Source of the DNA: a virus
Lineage: Duplodnaviria; Heunggongvirae; Uroviricota; Caudoviricetes
Direction: 5' to 3' (one strand)
IMG/VR virus record: IMGVR_UViG_3300036768_001066
Length of the DNA: 64,000 bases
Shown here: piece after piece, positions 6,815-63,443 of the stretch
How the letters are laid out: each line of letters starts with the position of its first letter
Numbering within the stretch: the first letter of the stretch is position 1
The notes under the pieces: generated by a model
The model's database searches: none
What the model was told of the DNA's origin: nothing
What the model saw: the letters and a program-made list of their open reading frames with translations, nothing else
Position numbers and translations under genes: made by a program

Positions 6815-6830
6815 GAATATATAAAGAAAC
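6815..6830 (+). promoter_or_regulatory. recurrent upstream motif gaATATATAAagaaac (putative phage promoter element)
   Basis: One of about 14 instances of GATATATAAG(A)AAA found 15-45 nt upstream of start codons; here 17 nt before ATG 6847. Confidence 0.4.
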
Positions 6831-6846
6831 AAATTATCATCATACA

Positions 6847-7632
6847 ATGAAGAGGAGAACAATGCTATTTGAGCAGTTCAACACGGCGAGCGCATTTGAA
6901 GCCCTGTGTGAATCTGTAACAGGCGACATCAAGGACATTCAGGGCGAAGTCAAGGACGTCATGGACGAGCTCGGCAAGGAAGGCGCTAAGGACGACGAGC
7001 TCAAGGCCGCAATCCTTTTGCAGGCTATTGAGAATGACGGGGACCTCGAGGAGATAGATCCAGAACAGCTTAAGAAGGACGTGAAGGAGGGTATGACCAT
7101 CAGGGACCAACCTATTAACGAGAACGCAGGTGGCATCATACATGTAGTGGAGGTCGCTGGTAACTTGCTCGGCAATTCTGCGTTTCTCGAATTCTTGTTC
7201 AAGAAGCTCGAGAAGCTGACCGGTAAGCCGGTCGACGGCGAGAAGGTCAAGGACACCATGAACAAGATCTTCGGAGCATTGAAGAAAGTAACGGGACTGC
7301 CCGGCAAGGCCATTGGTAAATTTTTCTCATGGGTTGCCAAGAAGCTCGGCGCCAATGAAACCGGACAGAAGACGTCGGCACTTCTCGGAATGGGTGCTCT
7401 CGTAATATTCCTGTTCACACTCGGCATTATACACTTCCCGGTTCTGGGTTCTGGAATACTTTGGTGGGTTCTTTCGTTGACCGGCCTTGTTGGCAAGTCG
7501 GCCGAGCTCGCGCACATCTACAAAGAAGTGAATGAGCTCATCAAGAGCGCGGCCAACAAGAAGGCCGAGGCCGAGAAGGAAGTCGGCATGGATGCGGAGG
7601 AGATGGAGAAGCTCGCGCAAGCAGCGGCCTAA
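6847..7632 (+). CDS. membrane protein (several TM helices), hypothetical
   Basis: 261-aa ORF. Acidic coiled N-terminal half, hydrophobic segments ALLGMGALVIFLFTLGIIHFPVLGSGILWWVLSLTGLV. Confidence 0.6.
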   Translation: MKRRTMLFEQFNTASAFEALCESVTGDIKDIQGEVKDVMDELGKEGAKDDELKAAILLQAIENDGDLEEIDPEQLKKDVKEGMTIRDQPINENAGGIIHVVEVAGNLLGNSAFLEFLFKKLEKLTGKPVDGEKVKDTMNKIFGALKKVTGLPGKAIGKFFSWVAKKLGANETGQKTSALLGMGALVIFLFTLGIIHFPVLGSGILWWVLSLTGLVGKSAELAHIYKEVNELIKSAANKKAEAEKEVGMDAEEMEKLAQAAA

Positions 7633-7653
7633 AGATAAATCTTATATTCGAAA

Positions 7654-7682
7654 GTTCCGGAGAAATCCGGAACTTTTTTTTC
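7654..7682 (+). terminator. rho-independent terminator (gttccgga-gaaa-tccggaac plus T9)
   Basis: 8-bp perfect stem, GAAA loop, nine consecutive T; directly after stop of 6847..7632. Confidence 0.8.
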
Positions 7683-7711
7683 TGCGCGGTATAATAAGTA
7701 AATTTTACAAT

Positions 7712-8443
7712 ATGAATACGCAAGACAAGATGTCGTCGTTCTTTGACTTCGGGGTGTTTAATTACGTGCCCAGTGACAAGAGCAGCATAATGCACCTGAA
7801 ATTCAACGAGGCGCCGGCCAAGTCCGCACCGCCGGATCACGAGTTGCGGGGCGTTACTGAGGTCCACCTATCCACAGCGGTCAAAGACATAGAGACCATA
7901 TCGGAGAACATAAAGATTGCTGGCGATCCAATGGCAGATGTTGCCGAGCACGTCATCGACAAAGCGTTTGACAGGCTATTGGAGATCTCGGCAGAAAACG
8001 GGAAGCTCGTCAACGACAGGTTTCCTACCGGCATAAACCTGAAGCTCGACGGTAACGCGCACCGCAAGATATTCGCCCGCATACTCGCGGTCTCCAATAT
8101 GATCGCGGTAATGGGCAGGAGGGGGCCGGCAAACTTCGCGCTCGTCAGCGAATCCACATACAAACGTCTGTTCTTCCCGGATGGAGAGACCAAGAACAAG
8201 TTCTACCAGCCGGACCCGAACGCAGGCGGCCTTAAGTTTTTCATCAGCCCGGTTGGCAATCGTGTAATCGTGGGTCGCAAGGGGTCAATGGAGGAGAACG
8301 GCATATTCATAAAATGCGATACTCCGGAGGTCGAGGATTACAAGATCGACGAGAGTCATGACATCGAGAGCGTGGATGTAAAGTACTCGATCACGGAGAT
8401 TGGAGACTTTCTTCCGTACATCTCGTTTGACATTGTCGAATAA
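7712..8443 (+). CDS. hypothetical protein (possible virion protein)
   Basis: ATG at 7712 in frame with track ORF 7532..8443, which overlaps the upstream gene and terminator. 243 aa. Confidence 0.55.
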   Translation: MNTQDKMSSFFDFGVFNYVPSDKSSIMHLKFNEAPAKSAPPDHELRGVTEVHLSTAVKDIETISENIKIAGDPMADVAEHVIDKAFDRLLEISAENGKLVNDRFPTGINLKLDGNAHRKIFARILAVSNMIAVMGRRGPANFALVSESTYKRLFFPDGETKNKFYQPDPNAGGLKFFISPVGNRVIVGRKGSMEENGIFIKCDTPEVEDYKIDESHDIESVDVKYSITEIGDFLPYISFDIVE

Positions 8444-8708
8444 AACGGCTATATTTATATTTATAGAAGGCCGGTCGTACGCGGCGGGCTGTTGCACGCT
8501 GAGGAAATTCGCGTCATCTCTGCTTAGGAGGAGTGGGAGGCAGCAATGCCGGTATAGTACCACCGTAAGTGAAAGTCCTTCCGAGATGCAACCCAAACAG
8601 ACTTAGGCGGTGAGCAGGTCGATGATGGTCGGGTTGGGGCATAGTCAAATGTACGGCGCCTCGCAAGAGGAACAGAAACGCGATTATAGGCCTTCTTATT
8701 TTTAAAAC

Positions 8709-8996
8709 ATGCTTAGAAGATTCATATACACAGGGGACATATCCGCGAACGGCGGTCCCAAGATCCTGCACGGCAACGACACCGATGTTTCGCTGCTAAC
8801 AATCGTCCAGGTACATAAGGACACGGATATGCGCCCTGACATAGGATCATATTACGGCAACCTCGTAACGTTGGAGGAGTTCATAGATAACGAGGAATTC
8901 TCCTTCGAGACAAACTACTTACAAGGTAGGCGTGATGCCATTGAGTATCTCGAGAAATTCAAGAATCTTGGTGTTGCTGAGATTCGACGTGAATGA
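8709..8996 (+). CDS. hypothetical protein
   Basis: 95-aa ORF. Overlapped by ORFs 8932..9135 and 9123..9695 in other frames; the three may be separate small genes or a frameshifted unit. Confidence 0.4.
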   Translation: MLRRFIYTGDISANGGPKILHGNDTDVSLLTIVQVHKDTDMRPDIGSYYGNLVTLEEFIDNEEFSFETNYLQGRRDAIEYLEKFKNLGVAEIRRE

Positions 8997-9695: not shown

Positions 9696-9880
9696 TACGG
9701 AGCTTGGTATGCAGCCGGCCGAAAAAACGGTCATGACGTTTCATGACGTGGACCAGGTGCCGGACTGGGTCCGCAACGAGCGCTGGTACGTTCACGACAC
9801 CCAGATAGATTTCTTCGGCAGTACCAGCTACATGGTACCCATAATGACCGTGTCGTTGAAAACGACTATCTAAAGATCTC

Positions 9881-9890
9881 AATATATAAG
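9881..9890 (+). promoter_or_regulatory. AATATATAAG motif inside palindrome atctcaa-tatata-agttgagat
   Basis: Motif instance only 6 nt before the ATG of the 1264-aa ORF, flanked by a 7-bp inverted repeat. Confidence 0.35.
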
Positions 9891-9895
9891 TTGAG

Positions 9896-12800
9896 ATGAT
9901 ACTTGCATTTTCACATACGCTGGACTTTCCATACGAGACCGCATTGGCGCTCGCCAAGGAGAAATTCCCGGACCTCGACTATTCGAACGTAAACACCTCG
10001 CGCGACCTCGATACGTTGCTGCTCGAGGCAGGCGAAATACTTTACGTAGACATAGACTTCGATAAACAGAGCAGGGAGGCGATAGCACTCGAGAACGAGA
10101 CGGCCAAGATAGTGGAAGCGCAAATAGGGGTGCTCGAATGCCCGGAGGACGGTGTGCCGCTCGTGTACACACAAGAGGAGCTTGACGCCGCCATATCCTG
10201 CGAGGTGCCCAACGAATTCCCGGACCCTAACTCCGACGACCCGGACGCCGCACCATCGGATAAGGATCTTCTCGAGTTGAATGCGGAGATAAGTCAGCTT
10301 GAGAAGGAGCTCGACCAGATACTCGAACTTCAGGACGAGGATAAGAATAAGATGCTCGACTGCGTCGGCAAGATGCAAAGCATAGCGGACGAGCTGAACG
10401 TCCTGATAGACAGGGAGACAAAGGTCAGGGAGACCGAGATAAATCTCGAGGAACTCTACTACAACTTCAGCATATTCGAGCGGTACTACAAAAAACGTGT
10501 ACAGAGGCTCGATGAGATACTCGGCATATTCGACCCGTTAATCATAGAGAAGCGAAGGCTTGAGGCGGAGATAGACAGGTTCCAGCCCATCCGCGACGAC
10601 GACAGAGATAAGTTCATCGAGCTCGACAAGATAATAAACCCCCAGAACTATACGTCCAACGTGTCCGGCATAGCTAACGCCATAGGGAACGCAACAGCAA
10701 ATGCTGTGAGCAGTGTGGCTGGTGCAGTGTCCACGGCCGCCGGAGACGCGGGGTTAAGCGGGATTGCTGGCGCCGCGCAAAACGCGTCGAACGCAACTTA
10801 TACGCCTCAGTACTCGCAGCAACAATACTCAGACTGGCAAGCCGCCAAGAAATTATTTGAGGACGACGAGGCATATCTGAATCAGCTGAAAGCGGATTTG
10901 CAGACCACCAAGGACAACCTCACAATGGAGCAGAACAAGATAGCTCCGTTCCTTAACACCGACGTCACGACAGTCAACACGCAGCAGTACGGCAGCAACG
11001 CAGAGTACGAGAGGTTCAGGTTCCTCGAGCAACGTCTCGCAGGGCTGTTCAGCGGCGCAGGCGATTCAATATACACCAGGATAACGACGTTCACGACCAG
11101 GACGACTGCTGTGCAGCAGCAGAACAGCAACAACTCTAACACAAACGAATCGTTCAGGCTCGAAATAAAATACACCCCCATAGACAGGGCCAATATTCTC
11201 GCCGGACGACCGAAGACTTACATGTTCTCCGACCAGGACACCACCATATTGCCTGTACCGCCTAACGAGACACCGCACGGTATTCTGTATGACAGGCTAT
11301 ACAATATATGGGATGACGACGAGAAATTTTTCACGAGGGAGGAGAGGGGATTAACCGCAAACGCCGCGGACGCCGCGTCAAACCTTAAGGGCTCCGGCGC
11401 CGAAGTATTCAAGGGCAGCTTCATAGGCGACGTGTCCAAGTTCAGGGCGTTCTATGAGAACTTCACACAGGAGTGGGAGAACAAGGTGTCGTTTACCAAA
11501 GAGAACGTGATAAACCCGGCGCATGCCGATCTTATCAGCGCGCTCGAGTTATTTGCTGTTAGTGAGGTCGAGTACCTCCTCGCATACGGAAACGCATACG
11601 AACAGTTGCCAGCCGACGTGCAATGGCTCGGCAACATAATAGAATATGTTAGGCAGTCGTCCGAGCGGTACATGGCAAAGACGCAGGAGCTGAGATCCGA
11701 TTTTCTGTTCGTGCAAGAATCGCACAAGAAGGTTATCGCGGACATCACGACAAAGCGCGGCCAGTACTTGACAGTTCCATGCGCATTAAATACCGCGCCG
11801 CCAGAACAGACGGAGCCGGACGGAGCCGGCAGCGACCCGCTCGGTGCGGAGTCTCTACTGAGTATGGACCCGTCAAAACCCAACCCTACAAAGTGGTGCT
11901 ACTGGGTGCGCTTTGCTGCATACGCAACTGCCGTCAATATACTGCCGCTGCCTGGTAGCGGTGGTTTCAGGTACTGGCCGATAGGGCTTACAATACCTAA
12001 TCCGAGCGGACTGATAAAAATACCCCTCCCGATAATCTGGATACCTATAGCCGTTATACCGCTGCAGGTGGGAATATTCGTAATATTCATTGGGCTGTGT
12101 GGTATATGTCCTTCACCGGTCGTGTTCTACATAGGGCCGAACGGCGAGAAGAAGTTCATAATATCGCTGAGGCCAGGTGATGACTTCGGAGCAAACGCGG
12201 AGGAGTCGATAATAAAGACCATAGACAAGCTCGGCGTCGGCATCAAGGCCCCGATAAAAAACCTGATAAATCAAATACAGGTGCCAGGCTTCCAGCCTCT
12301 GCTGAACCCGGACGGTTCGTCTGGATTGCTCGAGGACATAAAGGACAAGATAATAAAAAACATACAGAAGCTGCCGCAGTTGCCAAGCACGGCGCGGCTC
12401 AACGCACTCGATCCTAACGCGTCGATAGACCAGAAGCGTGCTGAGCTCAAGAACGCAATACTGGCCGAGATAGACAAGATAAAAATACCGGACCTAAAGT
12501 TCCCGAAAGACGGATCAACCGTAAATCCGAAACCACCTCCGATAACGGAGATCATTGACCAGCTGAAGAAGGCGGCTAAGCTTAATCTGCCTCAGTTGAT
12601 GGTGCCGTCCGTCGAGAAGATGAATCTTAAGACGAAGTTGCTCGCGGAGATAGACAAGCTTGGGCTGGAAGACGTAGAGCTGCCTTCGATACCGCGGTTG
12701 CCGGAAGTGCCGAACGAGCTTAACGATTATCTGAAGAAGGTGCGCGAGGCATTGGTGAAGTTCATAGGTAAAGCGAAATCAAAGATAACACCGGAAGGGC

Positions 12801-13690
12801 TCGGCATCCTCGCGGAGATAGGGATCGAGGGCGTTGTGTTCGTAAACCCGTACCAGTGCAAGGGCACGACTAAGGGTTTATCGTTGCCGCCAATACCGGG
12901 GCCGGTATTGATTGGACTCGCCGTGCTCGACCAACTGACGCTCGCCGCAGTCAACGGTATATCGACCGAGAACATGCTGAAGCTGCTTGGCAACAGGCCG
13001 GCGTTGCCGGGTAATTTAAAAGAGCTGGCAAGGAACGTTCTCGGCACCATGCCTAACGTGGAGGTACCAAACCCGTCGAAGGTGTCTATAAAGGACATGC
13101 TCAAGGACTCGGTTAAAATGGTTGTCAAGATGCAACTGCCGAGCCTGCCGGACCCTACTAAGCCGCCGCAGATAAGAATATCCGTGCCGGGCGAGCTGCT
13201 GAGAGGTTCGTTGAAGGTCGGCGTCGAGGGCATCATGAACGCGTTCCCTGCCCAGACGGTTCCATTCCCGACGCTGAGTCCGATAGATCTTAAACAAATT
13301 ATGGTATCCATAGTGGAGGATTCGTTTAAGCCCGTAGAGGATAAGCTCGGACCGTTCCTCGACATAGCGCAGGGATTCCAGAATGCGAAAGATAAGAGCT
13401 TTGCCGAACTGCTCGGCCTAAAGAAACTGAACCTCGACCACTCGCGCATACCCACTGTCACGCCGGAAGCGATGGCGGCTGCGATGGCGGTGGTTAAGAC
13501 CATATCGCTAACCCCGTACCCAGCTGTCGCGATAGCGCCGCAATTATTCAAGCAGCTGCACCCAGTGCTCACGAGCGACGACCTCCCGCCATGGGAAAGG
13601 TTCACCCTCGACAACTTCCTGTTCGTGTGCTTCCTCGACGAGTGGTGCAGGCAGGGCAAGAAAACGTGCGGATTTTTTGAGAATCCTTGA
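9896..13690 (+). CDS. large (1264 aa) coiled-coil / Ala-Gly-rich / TM-segment protein; possible tape-measure or ejection/internal virion protein
   Basis: Long uninterrupted ORF. N-terminal coiled-coil heptads, low-complexity A/G/S stretch (NAIGNATANAVSSVAGAVSTAAGDAGLSGIAGAAQ), strongly hydrophobic block (WCYWVRFAAYATAVNILPLPG...IPLQVGIFVIFIGLCGICP), repetitive proline/lysine-rich C-terminal half. Confidence 0.7.
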   Translation: MILAFSHTLDFPYETALALAKEKFPDLDYSNVNTSRDLDTLLLEAGEILYVDIDFDKQSREAIALENETAKIVEAQIGVLECPEDGVPLVYTQEELDAAISCEVPNEFPDPNSDDPDAAPSDKDLLELNAEISQLEKELDQILELQDEDKNKMLDCVGKMQSIADELNVLIDRETKVRETEINLEELYYNFSIFERYYKKRVQRLDEILGIFDPLIIEKRRLEAEIDRFQPIRDDDRDKFIELDKIINPQNYTSNVSGIANAIGNATANAVSSVAGAVSTAAGDAGLSGIAGAAQNASNATYTPQYSQQQYSDWQAAKKLFEDDEAYLNQLKADLQTTKDNLTMEQNKIAPFLNTDVTTVNTQQYGSNAEYERFRFLEQRLAGLFSGAGDSIYTRITTFTTRTTAVQQQNSNNSNTNESFRLEIKYTPIDRANILAGRPKTYMFSDQDTTILPVPPNETPHGILYDRLYNIWDDDEKFFTREERGLTANAADAASNLKGSGAEVFKGSFIGDVSKFRAFYENFTQEWENKVSFTKENVINPAHADLISALELFAVSEVEYLLAYGNAYEQLPADVQWLGNIIEYVRQSSERYMAKTQELRSDFLFVQESHKKVIADITTKRGQYLTVPCALNTAPPEQTEPDGAGSDPLGAESLLSMDPSKPNPTKWCYWVRFAAYATAVNILPLPGSGGFRYWPIGLTIPNPSGLIKIPLPIIWIPIAVIPLQVGIFVIFIGLCGICPSPVVFYIGPNGEKKFIISLRPGDDFGANAEESIIKTIDKLGVGIKAPIKNLINQIQVPGFQPLLNPDGSSGLLEDIKDKIIKNIQKLPQLPSTARLNALDPNASIDQKRAELKNAILAEIDKIKIPDLKFPKDGSTVNPKPPPITEIIDQLKKAAKLNLPQLMVPSVEKMNLKTKLLAEIDKLGLEDVELPSIPRLPEVPNELNDYLKKVREALVKFIGKAKSKITPEGLGILAEIGIEGVVFVNPYQCKGTTKGLSLPPIPGPVLIGLAVLDQLTLAAVNGISTENMLKLLGNRPALPGNLKELARNVLGTMPNVEVPNPSKVSIKDMLKDSVKMVVKMQLPSLPDPTKPPQIRISVPGELLRGSLKVGVEGIMNAFPAQTVPFPTLSPIDLKQIMVSIVEDSFKPVEDKLGPFLDIAQGFQNAKDKSFAELLGLKKLNLDHSRIPTVTPEAMAAAMAVVKTISLTPYPAVAIAPQLFKQLHPVLTSDDLPPWERFTLDNFLFVCFLDEWCRQGKKTCGFFENP

Positions 13691-16073: not shown

Positions 16074-16333
16074 GAAGCTTACGGTGTCCGTGTACAAATC
16101 GAGCCACCCGGAGATAGCCAAATTCAAGATGAAGAAATCGTTGACACCCAAGAGAATGGAGACGTATGTCATAACGAGGGAGCTCGCGGATAAGATAAAA
16201 AAGGACGGCACTCTCGTTTTGGAGGAGAAGCTCAAATAATTCTTAAAAAAGCCGAAGCTTTTATAGGTTTGAGTATATAATAAAGATACGATACGCAGAT
16301 AACTATTGTTTAACCACCAAAATTAAAATCTCA

Positions 16334-17431: not shown

Positions 17432-17564
17432 TCTAAGGGGAATAAGGGGTCGAAATACCGAGTGTAAACCAGGAACCCTGAGCGAGTCGCGACGTACAGA
17501 CACAGGGGCCAAATCGCGAACGATAGATACGGCCTGCTCACTGTTAGGCACTCAATCTTAGATG

Positions 17565-17600
17565 AGAGGGACCATTAAAACTGGTCCCTCTTTTTATTTT
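17565..17600 (+). terminator. rho-independent terminator (agagggacca-ttaaaac-tggtccctct plus T-rich)
   Basis: 10-bp perfect stem followed by tttttatttt, about 130 nt downstream of the S1-like gene. Confidence 0.8.
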
Positions 17601-17741
17601 ACACGATATATAAAACATGAAGAAGATGGAACAACTGAAGCCAGAACAAGCTAACGAAATAACATGATGAGGAATGTCATTATCACAAACAGCTGCGAGG
17701 ATGGGAACGGGTGCCGACTTATTATTAAAATTGGGTCTTAG

Positions 17742-19909: not shown

Positions 19910-19981
19910 AAAATTAAGAGATATATAGATAAACAAACTTATCAGTGGAGATCCAAGACAGGCAAGGCCTTTGGCTCAATC

Positions 19982-21131: not shown

Positions 21132-21186
21132 ATATTTTGTTGATGGACGACTATGAAGCGGGGCATGGTTGGAGTGGCAATCTAAT

Positions 21187-21480
21187 ATGAAACATCTAAA
21201 ACTATACGAAAGTTTCAATGAGAAACCAATCATGGTGTTCGATCGTACTCTGTACAGAGAACCGACTGAAGAGGAGCTTAGCGCGTTTGAGGACCATCCG
21301 AGTATTTCCAAGGAGGATGTCCTGAGCAATTTTCATTACATCTCGGTAGGCAAGGGCATATTCACCAAGGACAAGAAGGACCAGATAGTATCATGGATAG
21401 GCAAGCTCTGCAGACTATACCCCGACAATAATACGTACAAGGAGGCATTGGAACTTGCAAAGACAGAAACTACAAGATAA
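21187..21480 (+). CDS. small protein with the shared N-terminal leader (MKHLKLYESFNEK)
   Basis: ATG at 21187 in frame with track ORF 21169..21480. Confidence 0.55.
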   Translation: MKHLKLYESFNEKPIMVFDRTLYREPTEEELSAFEDHPSISKEDVLSNFHYISVGKGIFTKDKKDQIVSWIGKLCRLYPDNNTYKEALELAKTETTR

Positions 21481-22112: not shown

Positions 22113-22121
22113 TATATAAAG
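22111..22121 (+). promoter_or_regulatory. GATATATAAAG motif instance
   Basis: 18 nt upstream of ATG 22139. Confidence 0.4.
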
Positions 22122-23524: not shown

Positions 23525-23538
23525 GATATATAAAAAAA
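23525..23538 (+). promoter_or_regulatory. GATATATAAAAAAAC motif instance
   Basis: 15 nt upstream of ATG 23553. The palindromic ATATATA core may also serve the divergent smpB. Confidence 0.4.
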
Positions 23539-53394: not shown

Positions 53395-53405
53395 GATATA
53401 TAAGG
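53395..53405 (+). promoter_or_regulatory. GATATATAAGG motif instance
   Basis: 25 nt upstream of ATG 53430. Confidence 0.4.
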
Positions 53406-53429: not shown

Positions 53430-56400
53430 ATGGCAACCGTACTAAATCTATTCAGGCTTATACCGAGCGACGACCAGCAGTTGTTCACGGACAAGTGCAA
53501 CTTTAACTTCGACCAGATTTTGAATATGGGCGGGGGTCCTCCAGGTATTCAGGGCATCCAGGGCATCCAGGGTGTACCTGGAAGTCAGGGCATCCAGGGA
53601 TTCCAGGGTGACCCGGGCGTGCCTGGCACCAAGTGGTACGTGGAGAACACGGACCCCATCTCGTTTGGTCCGATAACGCCGGCTCCAGCCGAAGGCGATT
53701 ACTGGTTCGACACTAATACGCTCAACATCTACCAGTACGCGGGTTCGCCCCCATCGTGGACGCTCATCGGCAACCTCACGGTTTCCGGCGTGTTCAAGGA
53801 CGCCATCGGTGACTCTGACCGTGTTATATTCAGCAGCCCTACGCCGCTCAAGTCCCTCGTTCTATCCCCGATAAACTACGGCGTTGGAGCGCCACAGACG
53901 GGGCCGTACAAGCTAAAACTTATCGGATCTCCGGGCTCGCCACAGCAGATGTTCGGTGTGCTCGAGTCTGGCGCAGAGAACCTTGCGGCAAAGCAATCGT
54001 ACATCTCCGTAAATACCATAATCGCAAATACCGAATACTCGTGGGAGCTCGTAAACCCAACCGGCAACATCGAGTTCTCTGCATTTGGAACATCTCTCGA
54101 CTTAATAAAGCAGACGGGCACGGGCAGCATAAGCAGGTACGAGTTCAACAGCAACGCGTTCAAAATACAGCTCAACCCTACCGAGAGGTTGATGTCGTTC
54201 TACAACACACCATCCGGATTAAACTGGCACGTGGGCGGACACAACGCATTGACGAGTTCGACCGAGAGGTTGTTCTCCATAAATGACAGCGGGTCCATAG
54301 GCGTAGCCAACGCTTTCAGCAACGCCGTCGCCGGTGATGCTACGCCTTACGATTTCAGGTACGACCAGCTCAACGTGCAGCTTCCGGTAACGGCCGGCGC
54401 CACAAACATGTGGGCACGCTGGAGGGCAAAAGTATCGGGGTTCAACACAGACCAGCTCAACTTCAGGAACGTGAGAAGCTTCTTCGAATCTTCCGGCATG
54501 CCGTGGAGATCTTCGGAGATGCGCATAGAGCACAAGACCGACGCCACGTATAACCACTTCATAGCACTCGGAGGCGGCGCAACATCTGCCAACACGACCG
54601 TAGGAGTCTTCACATTCGTCAACCCACCAAGGCCGGCATTAAGATTCGGTACAGGCGGTACGGCCAATGACGGATACTACTTCGCGGCGGACTCTGGTCC
54701 ATCTGGCGGAGGCGGACTCCCGCGCATGTGGATGGGCGACCCGGACTACATCAAGACCGCGACAGGAACCCTGCTTGGCGGACTTGTAGGTGCAAAGCTT
54801 AACGTGCAGAGCTACAACGCGGCCGCAGGATTCGGTACATCAGGACACTCGAACATACACCTCGCGCCCGGAACTGGCGCTGGCGATTATTCCATACACG
54901 GCATCACGGCCGGGCACCCCGCTTCCGGCAGTGCATCGGACGGTGGTCTCATATTCCAGGGATGGGACAGCGCGAATACAAGGCTGATGTCGACGAGCCT
55001 CGCGGCAGGCGATACTCTTACTGCCGGCATGAGAAACCAGGTATCGGCTTGGTCAAATGGCGAGACATACTTCTGGTCGAGGTCCGACGGTAATGGATTC
55101 TTCCGAATCAGGTCAGGCGCAGTCTACGCAGGCACGCAGTCCAACCCTACAGTCACACAGATGTGGGCGAACGACATCACCACCCTTAGTGGGTACAACT
55201 GGTCAACTGGTCAGAAGTCGATTGTAATAAACGACAGCACCAACTATTCGGGATTCGGAGACGGATTCGTGGGTATAGGCGACAGGTTCAGCGAGTACAT
55301 CACCGCTGGTCCTGCGGTTCTCACAACCGGCAAGTGGTATAAGGGCCCGTGGAGTGGAGCGCCGGTTCACAACGGCATAGACTATCTTGATTTCGTTCCA
55401 TTCCAAGCGGCAAACGCGACATTAACGGCCGGAACAGTCGTCGAGGCCAAGCCTCAGACGAAGTTCCAAGTTTACGGCGCCGTGACCATAGGATCGAGGT
55501 CAAACATTCTCAATTACGCTTCCGACGTAGGCGACGTATCGTTCACGGTAGGTACCAATAACAAGGCGGCAGGGCTAAGGTCCGTTGTCCTCGGTGGCAA
55601 CGGTAACCAGTCGAACGCTAACGACGCGATAATGATAGGCTGGAGCGGATCTCCGGTCGTGAACACAACATTCGCCAACACTATATCGCTCGTGACTGCC
55701 ACGCACGCAAGCACGGCAGGCCCCGCTTCGTACTTGGCCACCACACTGTTCGCGCCTGGTGATATAAGTTTTGGAACTCCACGCTACAGGATCAGTTCCT
55801 CCCCGATAATATTCGCATCCACCGCTGTGCCGGTGCCGCAGTTCGGCGTAGTATCGGAGGTAGGCGACATGGCGCGTGTACTCCTGCTCGAGGGCAGGAA
55901 CACGGGAACTACTTTTGGCGGAGGTCCAAGCCCTTATCTCACAGGCATTCCAGTTATGCTGGAATACGCGGTCAAGAATGGCTCAGGTGCGCAGAGGTCC
56001 ATTGGTGCAGTCATGGGAGAGTACTACGAGGTATCGGGAACGAACCCGACCAACCAACGCGGTAGAATATCCATCGCCGTAAACAGCGGCGCGAGTTTGT
56101 ATCCAGTCGCCAACTTCAGCGCGTCTGGTCTGCAATTCATAGGACAATTCTTCAAGCCGAAGATCAGCGTCGCGCAGAACGGCGTTGTTGGAGGTAGCGG
56201 CATAGCCCTCAGCATATCAGGCGGTGCGGCGAACACCGGAGGCGGCCCAGCAACGGGCGGTCACGTGCTGATAGATGCAGGTCCTGGAGCGAACACTGGA
56301 CTGAACGGTATCGTGGCTGTCGGAGCGGCCGGTTCTACATACGCGGTAAACATAACGCCGTCGACACAGGTAACGATCGGGTCCATATCATCAGGAGCCA

Positions 56401-56921
56401 CCGTGCAGCTCGGTAACGCCAACTCATCCGACGTTGTACAATCATACGGTTCTGTGCAGGCAGTTAAGAGCACGTTCGTTAATCCTGGTCCTACTGCATC
56501 ATCCTTTGTTGGAATATCAACCGGTGGATCTGCCCCAATAGTTGCCACCCAATCCACCGTAGGCGATGCTTTAATCGTAACGTTTACAAAAACTGGTGTC
56601 GGTACGACAACGGTGTCGAGTGGTGTACAATTATTTCATCTTGAGATTGCCGCTGTCGCATACGATAGAACCATTGTGGCGGTCGGTAGTGGTAACAGTA
56701 GCGGTCTTGTTATATGGGAATTAAGATTAAACGGTACCGGTGGAACAATGTATCGTCGCCAACTCAGCGATGTCCATGGTGGCATAGAATTTCTTGTACC
56801 GGCCGGTAATAAAGTCGCGGTCAGGTTGGAATCGACATATCCCGGATATGGTAGTGCATTCACAATGTCTGGTTCAGCTACATTTTCATACTTTTTCAGA
56901 GCATTCAAACACGGATTGTAA
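53430..56921 (+). CDS. tail fibre-like protein with N-terminal collagen-like triple-helix repeats
   Basis: GGPPGIQGIQGIQGVPGSQGIQGFQGDPGVPG (10 consecutive G-X-Y triplets) near the N-terminus, followed by an 1100-aa Gly/Ser/Thr-rich beta-type body. Confidence 0.7.
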   Translation: MATVLNLFRLIPSDDQQLFTDKCNFNFDQILNMGGGPPGIQGIQGIQGVPGSQGIQGFQGDPGVPGTKWYVENTDPISFGPITPAPAEGDYWFDTNTLNIYQYAGSPPSWTLIGNLTVSGVFKDAIGDSDRVIFSSPTPLKSLVLSPINYGVGAPQTGPYKLKLIGSPGSPQQMFGVLESGAENLAAKQSYISVNTIIANTEYSWELVNPTGNIEFSAFGTSLDLIKQTGTGSISRYEFNSNAFKIQLNPTERLMSFYNTPSGLNWHVGGHNALTSSTERLFSINDSGSIGVANAFSNAVAGDATPYDFRYDQLNVQLPVTAGATNMWARWRAKVSGFNTDQLNFRNVRSFFESSGMPWRSSEMRIEHKTDATYNHFIALGGGATSANTTVGVFTFVNPPRPALRFGTGGTANDGYYFAADSGPSGGGGLPRMWMGDPDYIKTATGTLLGGLVGAKLNVQSYNAAAGFGTSGHSNIHLAPGTGAGDYSIHGITAGHPASGSASDGGLIFQGWDSANTRLMSTSLAAGDTLTAGMRNQVSAWSNGETYFWSRSDGNGFFRIRSGAVYAGTQSNPTVTQMWANDITTLSGYNWSTGQKSIVINDSTNYSGFGDGFVGIGDRFSEYITAGPAVLTTGKWYKGPWSGAPVHNGIDYLDFVPFQAANATLTAGTVVEAKPQTKFQVYGAVTIGSRSNILNYASDVGDVSFTVGTNNKAAGLRSVVLGGNGNQSNANDAIMIGWSGSPVVNTTFANTISLVTATHASTAGPASYLATTLFAPGDISFGTPRYRISSSPIIFASTAVPVPQFGVVSEVGDMARVLLLEGRNTGTTFGGGPSPYLTGIPVMLEYAVKNGSGAQRSIGAVMGEYYEVSGTNPTNQRGRISIAVNSGASLYPVANFSASGLQFIGQFFKPKISVAQNGVVGGSGIALSISGGAANTGGGPATGGHVLIDAGPGANTGLNGIVAVGAAGSTYAVNITPSTQVTIGSISSGATVQLGNANSSDVVQSYGSVQAVKSTFVNPGPTASSFVGISTGGSAPIVATQSTVGDALIVTFTKTGVGTTTVSSGVQLFHLEIAAVAYDRTIVAVGSGNSSGLVIWELRLNGTGGTMYRRQLSDVHGGIEFLVPAGNKVAVRLESTYPGYGSAFTMSGSATFSYFFRAFKHGL

Positions 56922-57863: not shown

Positions 57864-58810
57864 AGTTTAAGAGAATAATAACGATAATAGGATTCCTGCT
57901 TGCGGTATTAGTATCGTACGGACAGTCGAGCGATTGTCCAGCGTACTGCTTGTTTAACACGAGCACCTTCACTTTCACGCCAAGTAATGCTGGCGTACAA
58001 GAGCTGAACGCTACGAACCGCGGGTGCCTCGGCATAGAGCACCGTTCGGTGTGGCTGCAGGTTAACATACTCACTGGCGGCACAATGGTGTTTCGTATAA
58101 ACCCAAATGTGAACTCGGACGATTTCGATTTCGCTGTGTGGGGTACATCACCAGCTTGCCCTCCGACAACAGCGCCATTGAGGTGTTCTTATGCAGCAGG
58201 AGGCGGTAACACCGGAGTTGGCAATGGCGCGCTCGATTTATCGGAAGACGTGTTCGGCGACAGATGGGTGATGGCCATGACGGTCAATTCCGGGGAGTCG
58301 TACATAATACTTGTGGACAACTTTTCTGCCAACAGTGGATTTAACTTGAACTGGAACTGGGGCGCGTACAACACGACTGCCACGTTCTCGTGCTCGATAC
58401 TGCCGATAGAACTACTATCATTTGAGGGCGTAGCTACCGACACGGGCAATCTACTAAAATGGTCTTGTGCCACCGAGATAAACAACGACAGGTTCGAGAT
58501 CGAGCGCAGCACAGACGGAATAAACTGGACGGTCATAGGAACGGTGAACGGCGCCGGCAACAGTCATACAACTACCAACTACTCCTTCGTGGACAACAAG
58601 TACCAGAGGGGATTCAACTACTACAGGTTCAGGCAAGTCGACTTTAACGGCGTTTTTGACTACTCCGGGATTATTGTGGTCAATAACCCAGCGGCCCCAG
58701 TAAAGGAGATCTTGAAAATAACGGACGTGCTCGGAAGGGAAGTCCAGTTGACAGAGCCCGGCCTGAAGATAATAATATACAAGGACGGCACCACGTCCAA
58801 GCAGTACTAA
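57860..58810 (+). CDS. secreted protein with T9SS type-B (SprB/gliding-motility-associated) C-terminal domain
   Basis: Signal peptide MKFKRIITIIGFLLAVLVSYGQ. C-terminal ...LLSFEGVATDTGNLLKWSCATEINNDRFEIERSTDGINWTVIGTVNGAGNSHTTTNYSFVDNKYQRGFNYYRFRQVDFNGVFDYSGII matches the gliding-motility CTD pattern. Confidence 0.7.
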   Translation: MKFKRIITIIGFLLAVLVSYGQSSDCPAYCLFNTSTFTFTPSNAGVQELNATNRGCLGIEHRSVWLQVNILTGGTMVFRINPNVNSDDFDFAVWGTSPACPPTTAPLRCSYAAGGGNTGVGNGALDLSEDVFGDRWVMAMTVNSGESYIILVDNFSANSGFNLNWNWGAYNTTATFSCSILPIELLSFEGVATDTGNLLKWSCATEINNDRFEIERSTDGINWTVIGTVNGAGNSHTTTNYSFVDNKYQRGFNYYRFRQVDFNGVFDYSGIIVVNNPAAPVKEILKITDVLGREVQLTEPGLKIIIYKDGTTSKQY

Positions 58811-59196
58811 ACTTCGTCTTTTTTGTCGCCTCGTTCATCTGGCGTTTCGTACACCATCTTGAGAGTCCTGCGAGGCAACACGTATTCGAATCCTCCATCG
58901 AATTCTATACCGTTATTACTGTCGTAGTACCCGGTGAAACGAATGTGAACGTCGCCGAATCTGATCACGCGCTCGACGTGCTCTCCTCCACCCTCGTGAC
59001 CGCCGTCGGACGATACAAACTCCATCTTACCGAACATCTTCTCGATCTTCTGTATTATGATGTTGTCCTCATCTTCCGGGTCCTCGTCGATCTCATCGTC
59101 TATCCAGTTCTCGATTACCCACCGGATGTCCTTCTCGCGCTCGTCCGCGAGCGCGTATAGGAAGTCGACTATCTGCTGTCCCAATTCTGTATTCAT
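58807..59196 (-). CDS. acidic hypothetical protein
   Basis: 129-aa minus-strand ORF. Confidence 0.5.
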   Translation of the reverse strand: MNTELGQQIVDFLYALADEREKDIRWVIENWIDDEIDEDPEDEDNIIIQKIEKMFGKMEFVSSDGGHEGGGEHVERVIRFGDVHIRFTGYYDSNNGIEFDGGFEYVLPRRTLKMVYETPDERGDKKDEV

Positions 59197-59198
59197 GC

Positions 59199-59410
59199 TT
59201 CGTCTGTTTTATCACCTCGTTCGGCGGCGGATTAGTTGTGATTATTTTGCGCGGGAACACCTGCTCAAAATCCGAGTCCCACTCTGTGCCCTCCTGGCTG
59301 CAGTAAAATCCAGTGTATCGGATGTACAGGTCGTGCCGGAAAATGTACGTGTACTACGCGCTCGACGTGCTCGCGATCTCCCTCGCCACCACCGGTGGTG
59401 CGTACGTTTG
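59199..59410 (-). pseudogene. degraded tandem duplicate of the C-terminal half of 58807..59196
   Basis: Shares the exact 16-mer cgcgctcgacgtgctc. Shifted frames encode GGGEGDREHVERVVHVH and IRYTGFYCSQEGTEWDSDFEQVFPRKII, parallel to GGGEHVERVIRFGDVHIRFTGYYDSNNGIEFDGGFEYVLPRR of the intact gene. Confidence 0.4.
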
Positions 59411-59453
59411 AAATCAGGGAAGTGTTCCTTTATGGCACGGCTGCCTATAAGTA

Positions 59454-59705
59454 TCATGCTTCAATCTTCTTCTTAATCGTCCTCTCGCATTGGTTCATCG
59501 CATTGTTGATCTTCCACAGCAGGTCGGGTGTGGACATCCCATTGCCGTCGACGAAATTATCCACGGCCGTATTGATGTCGATGTCCAGGTTTTTGTGAGA
59601 GTACATTTGCTTGAAGCGGTGTTGTTCGCCAGGCGTGCACTTGGACAGCATGTCCTTGAGGTCCGACTTCATGAAGTCCCTCAGCCTTTGGTTGATCTGA
59701 TTCAT
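59454..59705 (-). CDS. hypothetical protein
   Basis: 83-aa ORF overlapping the next gene by 4 nt. Confidence 0.45.
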   Translation of the reverse strand: MNQINQRLRDFMKSDLKDMLSKCTPGEQHRFKQMYSHKNLDIDINTAVDNFVDGNGMSTPDLLWKINNAMNQCERTIKKKIEA

Positions 59706-60715
59706 TTTATCCCGTCGTAAAAGTTTATCACGCTCATATTTATGTCGTCCTGCTCCATGGATAGGATGAGGTCCTCGAACGCGTCATTGTGGTCTTTCGT
59801 CAGTTCGCCTTCGATACCGAGCATCTTCTTCTTGTACATGCCGACAAACTGGCCAAGATGTAGGCCCTTCAGTGGCGTCAGCATCATCAGCAAATCGCCG
59901 TTGAACTTCTCTTTGAACCTGGACTCCTTGGCGAGCTCGGCTTCGAGCTCCTTGCGCTGATCCTCTATGGATACCCCGAAATACGCCTCTATCGACGGTA
60001 TGTACTCGTCCCGGGCGTCCCTTGACTTGAATGCGTACCTGTTGTCCGGTTGTGCTATCTCGAGCCAGTTCAAGAAGTAGCTGAACGTCTTGCGCTTCTT
60101 GTCTCGCTTCTTGTTTATGGCGGACAGCTCGCCCTCGTATATGGACCTGTCGAAGTACTGGCTGGACGCCACGAACCGGAACATCTGCTCCATTGTGCTG
60201 AATCCCTCGGACCACGTCTTGTAGCTGCACCCTATGAACCCGAGTATTTTTATCATCTCGGTGGACACGACTATGTTCTTGCGCACAGAGCCCCGTTCGT
60301 CGCGCAACGGATACAGCAGGCCCTCGTGGCCGAACTTCAGCCCGAGCTTGCGGTATATCCTGCCGAGCAGGTTGCCTATGTCGTTGTAGCTGAAGTATGC
60401 GACGGAGGTATCGAAATTTTTAGAGGTGCATATAAGGTCCACCTGGAACCCCTCGAACGTGAATGATATTATGCCGTCGTTCACGAGCATGGACTCCGGG
60501 TTGAACTCCTGTTCGACGAGCGGGATTATGTCCCCGGCATCGGCCTTCACCACGTAGTCGACGTCGCCGAAATCCTTCTTCTTTCGATAATACGGGACCA
60601 TCATCCACATGACTCCGGCCGGTATGAGTATTTTACACAGACGCTGTCCAAGCCTCATAGTCAGCTGTTCGAATTCTTGGGCCTCGAGCCTCTTGTTTGA
60701 TAGTGATCCTCCCAT
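59702..60715 (-). CDS. hypothetical protein with a possible nucleotidyltransferase-fold motif (KKKDFGDVDYVV)
   Basis: 337-aa ORF. The G-x(n)-D-x-D motif is weak and the assignment is tentative. Confidence 0.45.
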   Translation of the reverse strand: MGGSLSNKRLEAQEFEQLTMRLGQRLCKILIPAGVMWMMVPYYRKKKDFGDVDYVVKADAGDIIPLVEQEFNPESMLVNDGIISFTFEGFQVDLICTSKNFDTSVAYFSYNDIGNLLGRIYRKLGLKFGHEGLLYPLRDERGSVRKNIVVSTEMIKILGFIGCSYKTWSEGFSTMEQMFRFVASSQYFDRSIYEGELSAINKKRDKKRKTFSYFLNWLEIAQPDNRYAFKSRDARDEYIPSIEAYFGVSIEDQRKELEAELAKESRFKEKFNGDLLMMLTPLKGLHLGQFVGMYKKKMLGIEGELTKDHNDAFEDLILSMEQDDINMSVINFYDGIK

Positions 60716-60785
60716 TGTTATATCAGTGGCGTGGGCGAAATCATCGCCTCAATTATGTTCTTTAATTGTTTCAAATATATTCATA

Positions 60786-61766
60786 TCAATTCTCTCTTAC
60801 GAGCACAGTGTGTTCCTCGAGTTTCGATAATACGGACGAGTAGAAAGATACCGGGAGCTGATCTGGAGACAATCCGGACACTCCTCCGTCTCCGGTCTCT
60901 ATTATCACGAGCTCGCCATCGTTAAGCATCCCGATGTCTATTGTGTAGAAGTCGCTCGGTATCCTCTTGGCAATATCGAGCAGCCACTGCGGCGGCGCTA
61001 TGTCCAAGCTTCCAACCCCGTGCGTGGGCGAGAAGCTCACGAGCCTGTCGTAAACGAAGAATGCCCGCCACTCCTCTGGCTTGCCGTCGGGGCGCTTGCG
61101 GAAGTCCACGTACTTCTTGAACACGTAGCCCTCGTTGAAGCTATTCCCGCGCTCGGCGCGCATGTTCGAAACAGTCTGCCTCGCTGCCGCTTCGTCCTCC
61201 CAGTCCTGTATGACGGACGCGTTCTCTGTTTCCTTGGCGGATTTAACCCAGTCCTTGACGAACACTTTGCGGTCGAGCGTCAGCCCGCCGTACTTGTTCT
61301 CGAAGTAACTGCGCATCTTCTCGTAGTCGAACTGGTCGCCTGTCTCCTCCTGGATGTACGTGTCGATGGCGTACTCCTTTATGTAGTTGTGTACGAGCGG
61401 GTACATGTGGCACGCCACGTACTGCGTTGGCGAGTTCAGCAACTTCATTCCAAGGTCGTTGCATGCGTCGTAGAAGTACTCGTACTCGGTTGGCGTCATC
61501 ATCCAGCCACGGTATACCCAGTCGACCGACTCTTTACCGGGGTTGCCGTCCTGGAACGACATTGTCATTTCGGCGAGCGCCTCCTTGAACTCTGGTGAAC
61601 CACCGTCGGCTTCCTCGGCCGTGCGAACGGCCTTCTTGAAGACGTCAAAATCGAACAGACGAACCTCGCCCCCGAGTAACTTGACCGCGGCGAATTCGCT
61701 TTGGTAATCCGGGTCGACCTGCTTGTTCTCAAGCGGGTTGCACGGGAATAGGACTTTTAATTTCAT
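60786..61766 (-). CDS. ATP-grasp fold enzyme (second copy)
   Basis: C-terminal ...FYTIDIGMLNDGELVIIETGDGGVSG fits the ATP-grasp core. Confidence 0.5.
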   Translation of the reverse strand: MKLKVLFPCNPLENKQVDPDYQSEFAAVKLLGGEVRLFDFDVFKKAVRTAEEADGGSPEFKEALAEMTMSFQDGNPGKESVDWVYRGWMMTPTEYEYFYDACNDLGMKLLNSPTQYVACHMYPLVHNYIKEYAIDTYIQEETGDQFDYEKMRSYFENKYGGLTLDRKVFVKDWVKSAKETENASVIQDWEDEAAARQTVSNMRAERGNSFNEGYVFKKYVDFRKRPDGKPEEWRAFFVYDRLVSFSPTHGVGSLDIAPPQWLLDIAKRIPSDFYTIDIGMLNDGELVIIETGDGGVSGLSPDQLPVSFYSSVLSKLEEHTVLVREN

Positions 61767-61799
61767 TTTTCTGTTTTTATGTTAGGATGCAACGCGACA

Positions 61800-62153
61800 T
61801 CAGATTCCTTTGGCAAAAAGTGAATTGTCAAATTCGTCAATTGACCGTCGCTCTGTCTTTGCCGCGGAGTTGAAATCCGAGTTGTCGATCTCCTCCATGA
61901 GCTCCTCGTGATCCTCCTTGGTTAGTTCCCCGTTCTTAAGGCTCTCGTCGAGCGTGTTCTTGAAGTTCTGTCTCGTGGCCTCCGAATCGAACCATGTCCT
62001 GGCACCGCCGAACTTGCCCATCAGGTACGACGTGTCGCAGCCGATAAGGAATTCTCTGATGCCCTTGTCCATCGCGCCCCAGTAGTACGTCCAGGTGCCG
62101 TAGTCTGAGTTTATCATTATCTGGCCCTTGCCTTCTCCGAGGTCCTCGAGCAC
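61800..62153 (-). CDS. hypothetical protein (GTG start)
   Basis: 117-aa ORF. An apparent upstream ATG is out of frame. Confidence 0.5.
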   Translation of the reverse strand: MLEDLGEGKGQIMINSDYGTWTYYWGAMDKGIREFLIGCDTSYLMGKFGGARTWFDSEATRQNFKNTLDESLKNGELTKEDHEELMEEIDNSDFNSAAKTERRSIDEFDNSLFAKGI

Positions 62154-62230
62154 GAAATCGCCCCATGTGTGGTTGTCTCTGAGCTTGCAACTTTCGACCT
62201 TGTAAAGTCCATGGGTGCCTATTTTGATAC

Positions 62231-62246
62231 GAATATATAAGAAAAT
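62231..62246 (+). promoter_or_regulatory. gaATATATAAGAAAAt motif instance
   Basis: 10 nt upstream of ATG 62256, in the divergent intergenic region. Confidence 0.4.
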
Positions 62247-62255
62247 AGGCAGAAC

Positions 62256-62552
62256 ATGGATCAGATTAGGAAAAAGTTATCCGCGGACGACCTCGCCGCC
62301 ATAATAGAAAAGTTGACGAACTACAAGGACCTGCACGGCAAGATAATGGACCTGGAGTCGCAGCTGAAGGAGATGCAGGAGAGGAAGGAGATGCTCGTCA
62401 CTGAGCTCGATCTCGCGAGGGCAGACGAGGAAATGATGATGGTCAACATGGCCTTCAAATACGGACCCGGCAAGCTGGACCCGCGCACTTTGGAATGGGT
62501 AGAAGAAACACAAAATAAAGCACAAGACAATGAATACATCGAGCGTATTTAA
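62256..62552 (+). CDS. small coiled-coil protein
   Basis: 98-aa ORF with heptad-like LESQLKEMQERKEMLVTELDLAR. Confidence 0.5.
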   Translation: MDQIRKKLSADDLAAIIEKLTNYKDLHGKIMDLESQLKEMQERKEMLVTELDLARADEEMMMVNMAFKYGPGKLDPRTLEWVEETQNKAQDNEYIERI

Positions 62553-63339
62553 TTGGTTGATGGATTGGGTCCGCAACCCCAACAAAAGACAGTTTTTGAT
62601 GATAGCGGCAATTGTACTGCTCGTCATGTTCTATTTCAGAGGATGTCAGAAACAGGCGCAACTGAAGGACGAGATGAAGAGACAGGAGCTCGTCAACGCG
62701 CAGAACATCAGGGCGCTCAACGACTCCGTTCGCTACATGAAGAACCGCGCCGGTGAACTCGAGGCAGTCAAGAGCTCGTTCGTCACCAAGGTGGAAGACC
62801 TCGAGAAGCTGAACAACGACTTGTACTCCGAGCTCAAGAAGGAGATAGGCACGGTCAAGAGCCTCGTCAAGGCCGGCGTCGGCGTGGACCGCGGAGAGAT
62901 CACAATATCGAATGACCTTGTGAGGTACCCGGACGGCAAGACATACGGACTGACGTTCAAGGACACTTACGCGGACAGCGCGCTCGTGTGGAACCTCAGG
63001 GGCGAGAGCAAGTTTAAGCTCGACAACAACACGATATTCTCGAGCACGACTACCATATTTGAGAACAACATGAAGGTAAAGCTGGTCATGGGATTCAAGG
63101 AGAACAAGGACAACTACGAGGTGTGGGCAAGATCCGGATCACCGCTTGTTAAGTTCAACGACCTCGACGGCGTGATATTGATACCGAAGAAGCCGGACCT
63201 AACGACACCGGTCGCGAAGAAGAAGCGTTTCGGCATCGGACCACAGATTGGGTTCGGCATCGGCAGCGACCTCCGCGGCAACATGAAGATAGGACCATTT
63301 ATTGGGATAGGATTATCTTATGACCCTATACAATTTTAA
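62530..63339 (+). CDS. N-terminally membrane-anchored coiled-coil protein (spanin-like architecture; speculative)
   Basis: TM helix FLMIAAIVLLVMFYF, then a coiled coil, then a Gly-rich C-terminus FGIGPQIGFGIGSD...GPFIGIGLSYD. Confidence 0.45.
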   Translation: MNTSSVFNWLMDWVRNPNKRQFLMIAAIVLLVMFYFRGCQKQAQLKDEMKRQELVNAQNIRALNDSVRYMKNRAGELEAVKSSFVTKVEDLEKLNNDLYSELKKEIGTVKSLVKAGVGVDRGEITISNDLVRYPDGKTYGLTFKDTYADSALVWNLRGESKFKLDNNTIFSSTTTIFENNMKVKLVMGFKENKDNYEVWARSGSPLVKFNDLDGVILIPKKPDLTTPVAKKKRFGIGPQIGFGIGSDLRGNMKIGPFIGIGLSYDPIQF

Positions 63340-63443
63340 AAATAGAAATAGAGGCGGAAAAAATTATTAGGACAGATTCGACATGTTCTGGCAAAATCAA
63401 GCAAGCAGGTGGATTCCTGTGGGAACATAAAATATTATAAAAG

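Follow-up and report, generated by a model that had tools for sequence, protein, structure and literature searches.

This study revealed that the repeated GATATATAA motif in a 64-kb stretch of giant-phage DNA (the window; 64,000 nucleotides of IMG/VR record IMGVR_UViG_3300036768_001066, a portion of a giant myophage genome of ~50% GC) is genuine and recurs beyond chance. The element, an eight-base box of the form RATATATA, most likely serves as late-gene promoter in a large group of uncultivated giant phages and represents a variant of the late promoter of phage T4. We consider it probable that this motif forms the central part of a promoter of the T4 late type that is specific to the phage, consists of a single element and is read by a small, phage-encoded sigma factor resembling gp55. 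T4-type late promoters as such are known; the variant box is what is new, and it was not described in the literature searched.

Across the whole window, ATATATAA was found 12 times on the plus strand and never on the minus strand, against an expectation of ~1.4 copies, and it ranks second in over-representation among the 8-mers seen at least six times. When at most one mismatch was allowed, GATATATAAG gave 11 matches, all of them on the plus strand (2.9 expected). The intergenic DNA (6,618 nt, 44.5% GC, compared with ~51% GC in coding DNA) holds 8 copies of ATATATAA, whereas 0.22 would be expected under an order-1 and 0.96 under an order-2 Markov model, and none of 500 composition-matched simulations gave 8 intergenic copies. 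The original prediction had stated that a frequency no higher than AT-rich intergenic composition would give should count against the motif; a clear excess was found instead. All 12 core instances that it had listed were present, with coordinates correct to within 1-3 nt except for the one given as 19931, which lies at 19920-19927. We also identified four further instances, at 25784 (+), 21095 (+), 4918-4911 (-) and 5007 (+).

Ten copies lie within 60 nt upstream of plus-strand starts, where 0.26 would be expected. Aligned on the T of TATATA, the consensus reads R(-2)-A-T-A-T-A-T-A-A-R-n-A-A-A, and in 10 window genes the distance from the first T to the ATG is 22-33 nt, with a mode of 26-29. 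No conserved -35 element was found: the information content was at most 0.24 bit at each position from -60 to -3 in 41 aligned instances, and positions -16 to -3 carried at most 0.18 bit in 358 instances. The boxes follow strong intrinsic terminators (17564-17592 before the box at 17605, and 26816-26850 before that at 26856) or stand in divergent intergenic regions (23525, 40030, 44408 and 62232). A divergent intergenic region must hold a promoter. That the motif follows terminators and stands at the head of transcription units, as had been claimed, was thereby confirmed, and divergent regions can be added to the description.

Syntenic loci of relatives were retrieved by means of the baseplate wedge protein of the window (26886-28616; T4 gp6/Baseplate_J type). 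Among sequenced phages, the nearest are uncultured huge phages (LR756500, with 35-40% protein identity), the Prevotella Lak phages and the jumbo phages of Tenacibaculum, Chryseobacterium, Flavobacterium and Sphingomonas (PAU). Much closer relatives, with baseplate identities of 58-93%, are represented by metagenomic contigs only. Five of these, L002, L004, L005, L006 and L007, carry the box in front of the corresponding genes; their baseplate proteins are 93%, 73%, 61%, 60% and 58% identical to that of the window, respectively. In front of the baseplate gene, the spacing of 28 nt is found in six of seven genomes, the window included, and is 31 nt in L007; the cassette of terminator, box, 28 nt and ATG is retained over the range of 93% to 60% protein identity. 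Both the box and the 28-nt spacing are also present before the baseplate gene of LR756500, at 40% identity and in a genome of 24% GC. Of all ATATATA words in the complete genome of LR756500, 21% are located 9-45 nt ahead of a start codon and in the sense orientation, compared with 3-7% for control AT-rich 7-mers, and in the near clade of the window this distance from an ATG applies to 47 of 91 ATATATA copies (52%). In distant relatives, TATATA matches 55-65 nt ahead of the baseplate gene were rejected as promoters, being coding sequence for I-D-I-Y-I-D-G.

The box was found in phages spanning 24% to 52% GC, which presumably have different hosts. In Tenacibaculum phage PTm1, no enrichment was observed in the 41.5-kb stretch scanned, so the box seems to belong to one sub-lineage and not to all jumbo phages of Bacteroidota. 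The gp32-like, gp44-like, sigma70-like and gp55-like genes of LR756500 have no box at promoter distance, which indicates that the box is specific to a class of genes. The nucleotide-metabolism block at 1-3495 of the window likewise contains zero copies. Absence from such genes and from this block fits a promoter that is class-specific and probably late.

With regard to the start site, the relatives showed a bimodal distribution of the spacing between the box and the first ATG of a long open reading frame (ORF). Counted from the first T of TATATA, an ATG occurs at offset 10 or 11 in 13 of 75 distinct instances of the near clade, with none closer (binomial P = 4.5e-10 against a uniform distribution over 118 offsets). 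In 64 loci that encode a short gp55, 74 of 450 instances fall at offsets 10-11 (51 at 10 and 23 at 11; binomial tail 1.8e-48 against the same distribution), 11 fall at offsets 5-9, and 1-3 per position are seen at offsets 14-21 before a broad peak at 22-35. A spike at 10-11 with almost nothing closer points to transcription starting at offset 10-11, since an ATG cannot lie upstream of the start. The profile of 41 instances, drawn from genes that have a leader, shows a purine at offset 10 in all 41 and A at offset 11 in 33. Where the ATG stands exactly at offset 10-11 the mRNA would be leaderless, and many mRNAs would be of this kind, as about one-sixth of the boxes in the relatives abut an ATG. 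This implied leaderlessness is a difference from T4.

The T4 late promoter comprises an 8-bp box, TATAAATA, at -13 to -6, has no -35 element and is followed by an A/T-rich segment (PMC2988020). With a start at offset 11, RATATATA would span the same positions and agree with TATAAATA in 6 of 8 bases, which bears out, in the same register, the resemblance suggested by the original prediction. The differences are T in place of A at -9 and G/A in place of T at -13. As in T4, a single 8-bp box of the TATA type would lie about one helical turn upstream of the start, there is no -35 element, the DNA downstream of the box is A/T-rich, either orientation is possible, and the box heads virion genes. The T4 consensus itself is not the box of this phage; TATAAATA occurs in three copies in the window, which are all on the minus strand, and no gene has one at promoter distance. 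For the T4-related phages KVP40, 44RR and S-PM2, late promoters have been predicted in silico with slight departures from TATAAATA, and Aeh1 has a/gC at -13/-12 (PMC2988020). These consensus sequences were likewise derived from sequence alone and keep the AAATA core, whereas the core described here is an alternating, partly palindromic TATATA. In control contigs with a classical gp55, (T/C)ATAAATA was enriched, and the distance from ATAAATA to the ATG, counted from box position 1, formed a minor cluster at 13-16 and peaked mainly at 25-32. The corresponding values for the present box are 12-13 and 26-37, that is, the same geometry to within 1-2 bases.

The jumbo phages of Bacteroidetes were placed in group 2.2 by Iyer et al. 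(2021; PMC7824862), who describe a T4-like strategy for this group: it has no RNA polymerase (RNAP) of its own but encodes phage sigma factors and an ortholog of gp33. The relatives analysed here carry T4-type modules, namely gp13, gp20, gp21, gp23, gp32, gp44, gp46/47 and gp55. A gp55-like gene, for which a search had been suggested, was not found in the window and was found in box-using relatives such as LR756500, where ATATATA boxes and the gene occur in the same genome. The LR756500 protein, an ORF of 124 aa, was matched by a profile hidden Markov model (HMM) of five diverse gp55 sequences (E = 2e-6) and by PHROG 234, 'late sigma transcription factor' (E = 7e-13). The same genome contains gp44-like clamp-loader ORFs and a gp32-like single-stranded DNA-binding protein. 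The family of short gp55-like proteins comprises more than 220 clusters of 120-155 aa with 55-70% mutual identity, and it retains the gp55 motif N-A-F-A-Y-x-T-E as well as a C-terminal G-I-Y-S-I tail. Its profile has T4 gp55 as the top match in the PDB (E = 0.008). An AlphaFold model of the gp55-like protein (pLDDT 81) gave 7d7c_F, the gp55 of the T4 late open complex, as the best PDB match in Foldseek (TM 0.69, rmsd 1.6 Å), ahead of sigma region-2 domains. The box-using relatives thus encode a gp55 homolog with the same predicted fold, located beside gp46/47-like genes as in PhiW-14 and Moby. In contrast to T4 gp55, which has 185 residues, these sigmas measure 120-155 residues and are devoid of the T4 C-terminal half, ending in the conserved GIYSI tail, which may be a clamp-binding peptide.

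In loci L266-L268, the gp55-like gene lies between SbcCD (gp46/47)-like genes and genes for a T4-type portal, prohead protease and Gp23, and boxes are present 44 nt before the portal gene, 28 nt before the protease gene and 99 nt before the capsid gene. In these loci and across L272-L335, ATATATA boxes are found within 10 kb of the gp55-like gene. The strongest argument for a short gp55 reading the box is that the box covaries with the type of gp55. In the 64 short-gp55 loci, 329 of 671 ATATATA words (49%) lie 9-45 nt upstream of an ATG, corresponding to 36 per 100 genes, compared with 100 of 628 ATAAATA words (16%). In 71 loci with a classical gp55 the preference is reversed, the same distance being observed for 10 of 166 ATATATA words (6%) and for 119 of 228 ATAAATA words (52%). 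The full 8-mer TATAAATA precedes just 2.7 per 100 genes in the short-gp55 loci.

According to the mechanism that we propose, the host multisubunit RNAP core would carry the small gp55-like sigma of the phage, composed of a single region-2 domain (~100 residues) and a short tail. This sigma would read the box at positions of about -13 to -6 and would need no -35 contact; the box, R-A-T-A-T-A-T-A, is usually followed by A-R-n-A, after which comes a purine (A) at the putative start. Initiation would take place 10-11 nt downstream of the first T of TATATA, and the mRNA would either be leaderless, with the AUG at its 5' end, or have a short, A-rich leader of ~15-20 nt. Such transcripts fit hosts in which Shine-Dalgarno pairing is not used. 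The box would head units for virion and other presumably late genes. In the window these would be the baseplate wedge, the unit of the gp13-like neck protein (19178-19909), large proteins without assigned function and the endolysin-like gene; in the relatives, the genes for the portal, the prohead protease and the major capsid protein. The box also precedes PhoH and many genes of unknown function in the window. The genome to which the window belongs would carry its gp55-like gene outside the window.

Several observations weigh against this reading. No sigma factor, gp55, gp33 or RNAP was found in the window when most called ORFs of at least ~80 aa were compared with PHROGs and Pfam, and local HMM searches of all ORFs of the window and the near clade (~240 kb of near-clade DNA) did not detect a sigma or gp55-like gene. 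The proposed link between box and gp55 comes from more distant box-using relatives and not from the near clade. The related and divergent short gp55 of L331-L335 (IMG/VR) is accompanied by boxes of the AATAAATA type (ATAAATA type) and not by ATATATA, which means that a short gp55 alone does not predict an ATATATA box and that specificity has switched within the short-gp55 family. In T4, the sigma is tethered by the sliding clamp gp45 and the co-activator gp33; no match to either was obtained in LR756500 by phmmer with single T4 sequences. This phage additionally encodes two sigma70-family proteins, at 440898-441755 (+) and 75547-76392 (-), which are closest to RpoD of Bacteroidales/Prevotella with 37-40% identity. 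The basis for placing the start 10-11 nt after the first T is ATG geometry and base conservation only, and late timing is inferred from gene content, most of the downstream genes having no known function. Finally, the gene calls were crude, only instances with the exact word ATATATA were taken, and related loci do not count as independent samples.

The two sigma70-family proteins of LR756500 look like host-derived sigmas carried by the phage, and sigma70 region-2 proteins are also encoded by MA9V-1 and PAU. The box could therefore be read by a phage sigma70-family factor derived from the host primary sigma, in which case TATATAAG would be a Bacteroidota '-7' element with altered specificity. 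If transcription started at offset 10, TATATAAG would lie at -10 to -3, close to the position of the host -7 element, and T1, A2, T5 and G8 are shared with TAnnTTTG. We nevertheless regard this explanation as unlikely. These sigmas keep region 4, yet no element resembling -33/-35 is present; position 8 is A as often as G; the T4 register yields 6 of 8 identities together with the geometry of the classical gp55 contigs; and the type of box follows the type of gp55 across ~140 loci. It is very unlikely that the box is simply a host promoter recognised by the primary sigma of the host without any phage factor. The box is AT-rich and situated at a -10-like distance, and promoters of the Bacteroidota primary sigma (-33 TTTG / -7 TAnnTTTG) resemble the present element in the presumed host phylum, in the AT-rich sequence near the start and in the lack of a Shine-Dalgarno-dependent leader. 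However, there is no -33 element here, and positions 6-7 are AA and not TT. As the original prediction had noted, the motif differs from TAnnTTTG, and only 2 of 34 copies of the latter lie upstream of window genes, which is no enrichment. The pair TTTG-N17-21-TAnnTTTG gave 2 matches in the window compared with 0.65 expected, neither of them upstream of a gene, and sigma70-type promoter matches in the window were at chance level (22 compared with 19.2 expected). A host promoter is also difficult to reconcile with the absence of the box from the replication and transcription-factor genes of LR756500 and from block 1-3495, with its occurrence in phages of such different GC content and with its lack of enrichment in the PTm1 stretch.

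The original prediction had proposed a phage-encoded sigma factor or RNAP. The former is favoured by the gp55-like gene of box-using relatives and by covariation, whereas a promoter for a phage RNAP, either single-subunit or phiKZ-like and multisubunit, appears highly improbable. The window does encode very large proteins of unknown function (1264, 1162, 1810 and 1163 aa), and the late promoters of the non-virion RNAPs of phiKZ and AR9 are, like this one, short, AT-rich, single-element promoters of jumbo phages. However, those promoters need phage multisubunit RNAPs, for which no genes were found here: the large proteins match no RNAP family in PHROGs or Pfam, and no RNAP-like protein turned up in the window or in complete LR756500. 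Moreover, group 2 jumbo phages are reported to lack an RNAP (Iyer et al., PMC7824862), the relatives have T4-type modules, and the geometry of the box is that of gp55 promoters. The tight spacing to the ATG and the dependence of Bacteroidota-type translation on A/U-rich leaders would suit a signal acting in RNA, such as a processing site or an enhancer of translation initiation in the 5' untranslated region; but the box occurs directly after terminators and in divergent regions without an upstream co-directional transcript, its two spacing classes (10-11 and 24-33 nt), with an empty trough between them, are not what a ribosome-binding signal would give, and it covaries with a sigma-like protein, so we attach very little weight to an RNA-level role in place of a promoter. 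Chance clustering of an AT-rich word in spacers that are richer in A+T than genes has a practically negligible probability, given that no simulation reached the observed count, that the strand bias is 12 to 0 and that the box is conserved at orthologous sites.

The T4-type promoter read by a small gp55 would extend the T4 late-transcription paradigm to phages that apparently infect Bacteroidota, and it would indicate that a minimal sigma can be smaller than T4 gp55. The broader proposal is of a very large, uncultivated, T4-related lineage of giant phages with a miniaturised gp55 (sigma-2 domain and GIYSI tail, ~125 aa), in which specificity has shifted from TATAAATA to RATATATA and about one-sixth of late transcripts start at the AUG, while sister short-gp55 lineages are still on ATAAATA; the chances for and against this full picture are in our view evenly balanced. 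The ATATATA and ATAAATA lineages, whose sigmas are 35-60% identical, represent a natural experiment on promoter recognition by one domain, and, if the proposal is true, the sister lineages would form a natural specificity-swap pair for the question of how a one-domain sigma reads DNA. The frequent leaderless late mRNAs that are predicted bear on translation initiation without Shine-Dalgarno pairing. In practical terms, the promoter model, with its box, start site and leader classes, could be used to annotate transcription units in giant-phage contigs, of which gut, freshwater and soil metagenomes have yielded hundreds and the regulation of which is almost wholly unexplored. No new principle is involved, and a specialist would expect a T4-related jumbo phage to have some variant of the late promoter.

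Further observations were made on the gp55-like loci. In L331-L335, homologs of the 1002-, 692- and 1162-aa proteins of the window directly follow the divergent short gp55. L338 and L352, which encode a long gp55 and originate from the same sample as a near-clade contig, were rejected as near-clade members because they use ATAAATA and so belong to another lineage. The placement of a gp55-like protein and a baseplate homolog on one contig was also rejected, since they come from separate records of different GC content (0.36 and 0.46) that share no 25-mer. Downstream of the gp55-like gene of LR756500.1, at ~231554-233590, a 538-aa homing-endonuclease-like ORF has the same NAEIYSI C-terminus as the gp55-like protein. 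It was dismissed as a second clamp-binding partner, being a homing-endonuclease-like insertion with a duplicated 3' end; the shared terminus suggests that the insertion duplicated the 3' end of the sigma gene. A tblastn search of the phage collection with T4 gp55 and the MA9V-1 sigma did not reach this clade, and a search with the LR756500 sigma70-like protein returned only cellular RpoD of Bacteroidales and no phage contigs.

The individual boxes of the window are as follows, all on the plus strand unless stated otherwise and with distances measured to the ATG of the gene. The box at 6816-6823 (AATATATA, then AAGAAA) has its first T 29 nt before gene 6847-7632. That at 9881-9888 (AATATATA, then AG) is only 13 nt from the 1264-aa gene 9896-13690, which would be nearly leaderless. 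The palindrome that had been described here was verified: a perfect 7-bp inverted repeat, ATCTCAA/TTGAGAT, flanks TATATAAG at 9874-9895 and could be an operator or a promoter-modulating hairpin. The box at 17605-17612 (GATATATA, then AA), directly after its terminator, is followed at offset 10 (17617) by an ATG that opens an ORF of 16 codons only, because an insert of ~125 nt (17617-17741), which contains two small ORFs of 16 and 25 codons, separates it from the 455-aa gene 17742-19109. The L004 and L005 orthologs of this gene begin 10-11 nt after the box, and the additional segment may have been inserted recently or may serve as a regulatory leader.

Two boxes stand on either side of overlapping ORFs, 19982-20752 and 20373-21131, which both match homing-endonuclease PHROGs and are probably one frameshifted or degenerating mobile endonuclease gene (19982-21131) inserted after the gp13-like gene. 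One box, at 19920-19927 (GATATATA, then GA), is 60 nt before ORF 19982-20752. The other, at 21095-21102 (GATATATA, then AC), lies at the 3' end of the endonuclease ORF and 90 nt before the ATG at 21187 of ORF 21187-21480, the scored gene call starting at 21232, 135 nt past the box; it is a weaker candidate. The boxes at 22111-22118 (GATATATA, then AAGAAA; 26 nt before gene 22139-22489) and 23525-23532 (GATATATA, then AAAAAA; 26 nt before gene 23553-23870) are both conserved in L002, and that at 25784-25791 (GATATATA, then AATCAA; 27 nt before gene 25813-26313), which overlaps the end of the ART-PolyVal gene, is conserved in L002 and L004. The baseplate box is located at 26856-26863 (GATATATA, then AGAAAA), and the PhoH-like gene 36187-36969 has its box 28 nt upstream, at 36157-36164 (GATATATA, then AAGCAT), as it has in L004 (29 nt).

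The box at 40030-40037 (GATATATA, then CT) precedes gene 40064-40786 by 32 nt. At 44408-44415, the palindromic core TATATATA can be read in either orientation, with the 1162-aa gene 44460-47948 (+) starting 50 nt to one side and gene 43415-44380 (-) starting 33 nt to the other, and is possibly bidirectional. Further boxes are found 33 nt before the 1163-aa gene 53430-56921 (53395-53402; GATATATA, then AGGAAG) and 22 nt before gene 62256-62552 (62232-62239; AATATATA, then AGAAAA). On the minus strand, a box at 4911-4918 (GATATATA, then CCAAAA) is 26 nt before the endolysin-like gene 4159-4890. The three looser variants of the original prediction deviate in their core and can be kept as candidates only: TATAATAAG at 7690-7698, after a terminator at 7650-7677 and 22 nt before gene 7712-8443; AGTATATAAT at 16272-16281, 60 nt before the S1-domain gene 16334-17431 and just downstream of a host-type TAGGTTTG at 16264; and the variant at 63429. 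A box-like GATATATA, then GA (GATATATAG), at 5007-5014 is also only a candidate, 168 nt upstream of a tRNA cluster.

The tRNA cluster, at 5182-6191, has six genes, those listed being Asp, Ala, Cys and two Glu; the tRNA at 6117-6191 has an abnormal anticodon-loop call ('ttgc') and its type was not determined. The window also encodes a Dda-like helicase and SmpB, the partner of tmRNA. The SmpB homolog (23044-23496, minus strand), which is divergent from the box at 23525, is a match to phrog_6791, and PF01668 is present in the L002, L004 and L005 orthologs; no tmRNA was found in the window. A 700-aa protein encoded at 37300-39402 (-) exhibits a PBP-C-like domain and a weak type IX secretion system (T9SS) C-terminal sorting domain, and L006 encodes a SprB/Por_Secre_tail protein at 21073-21761; together, these two features point to a host among Bacteroidota. 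Two minus-strand ATP-grasp proteins (R2K clade; YheC/D-like) are encoded at 43415-44380 and 60786-61766. The minus-strand block 58807-62153 includes a DNA-polymerase-like fragment, whose gene (59702-60715) is preceded, 64 nt upstream, by a host-type TATATTTG.

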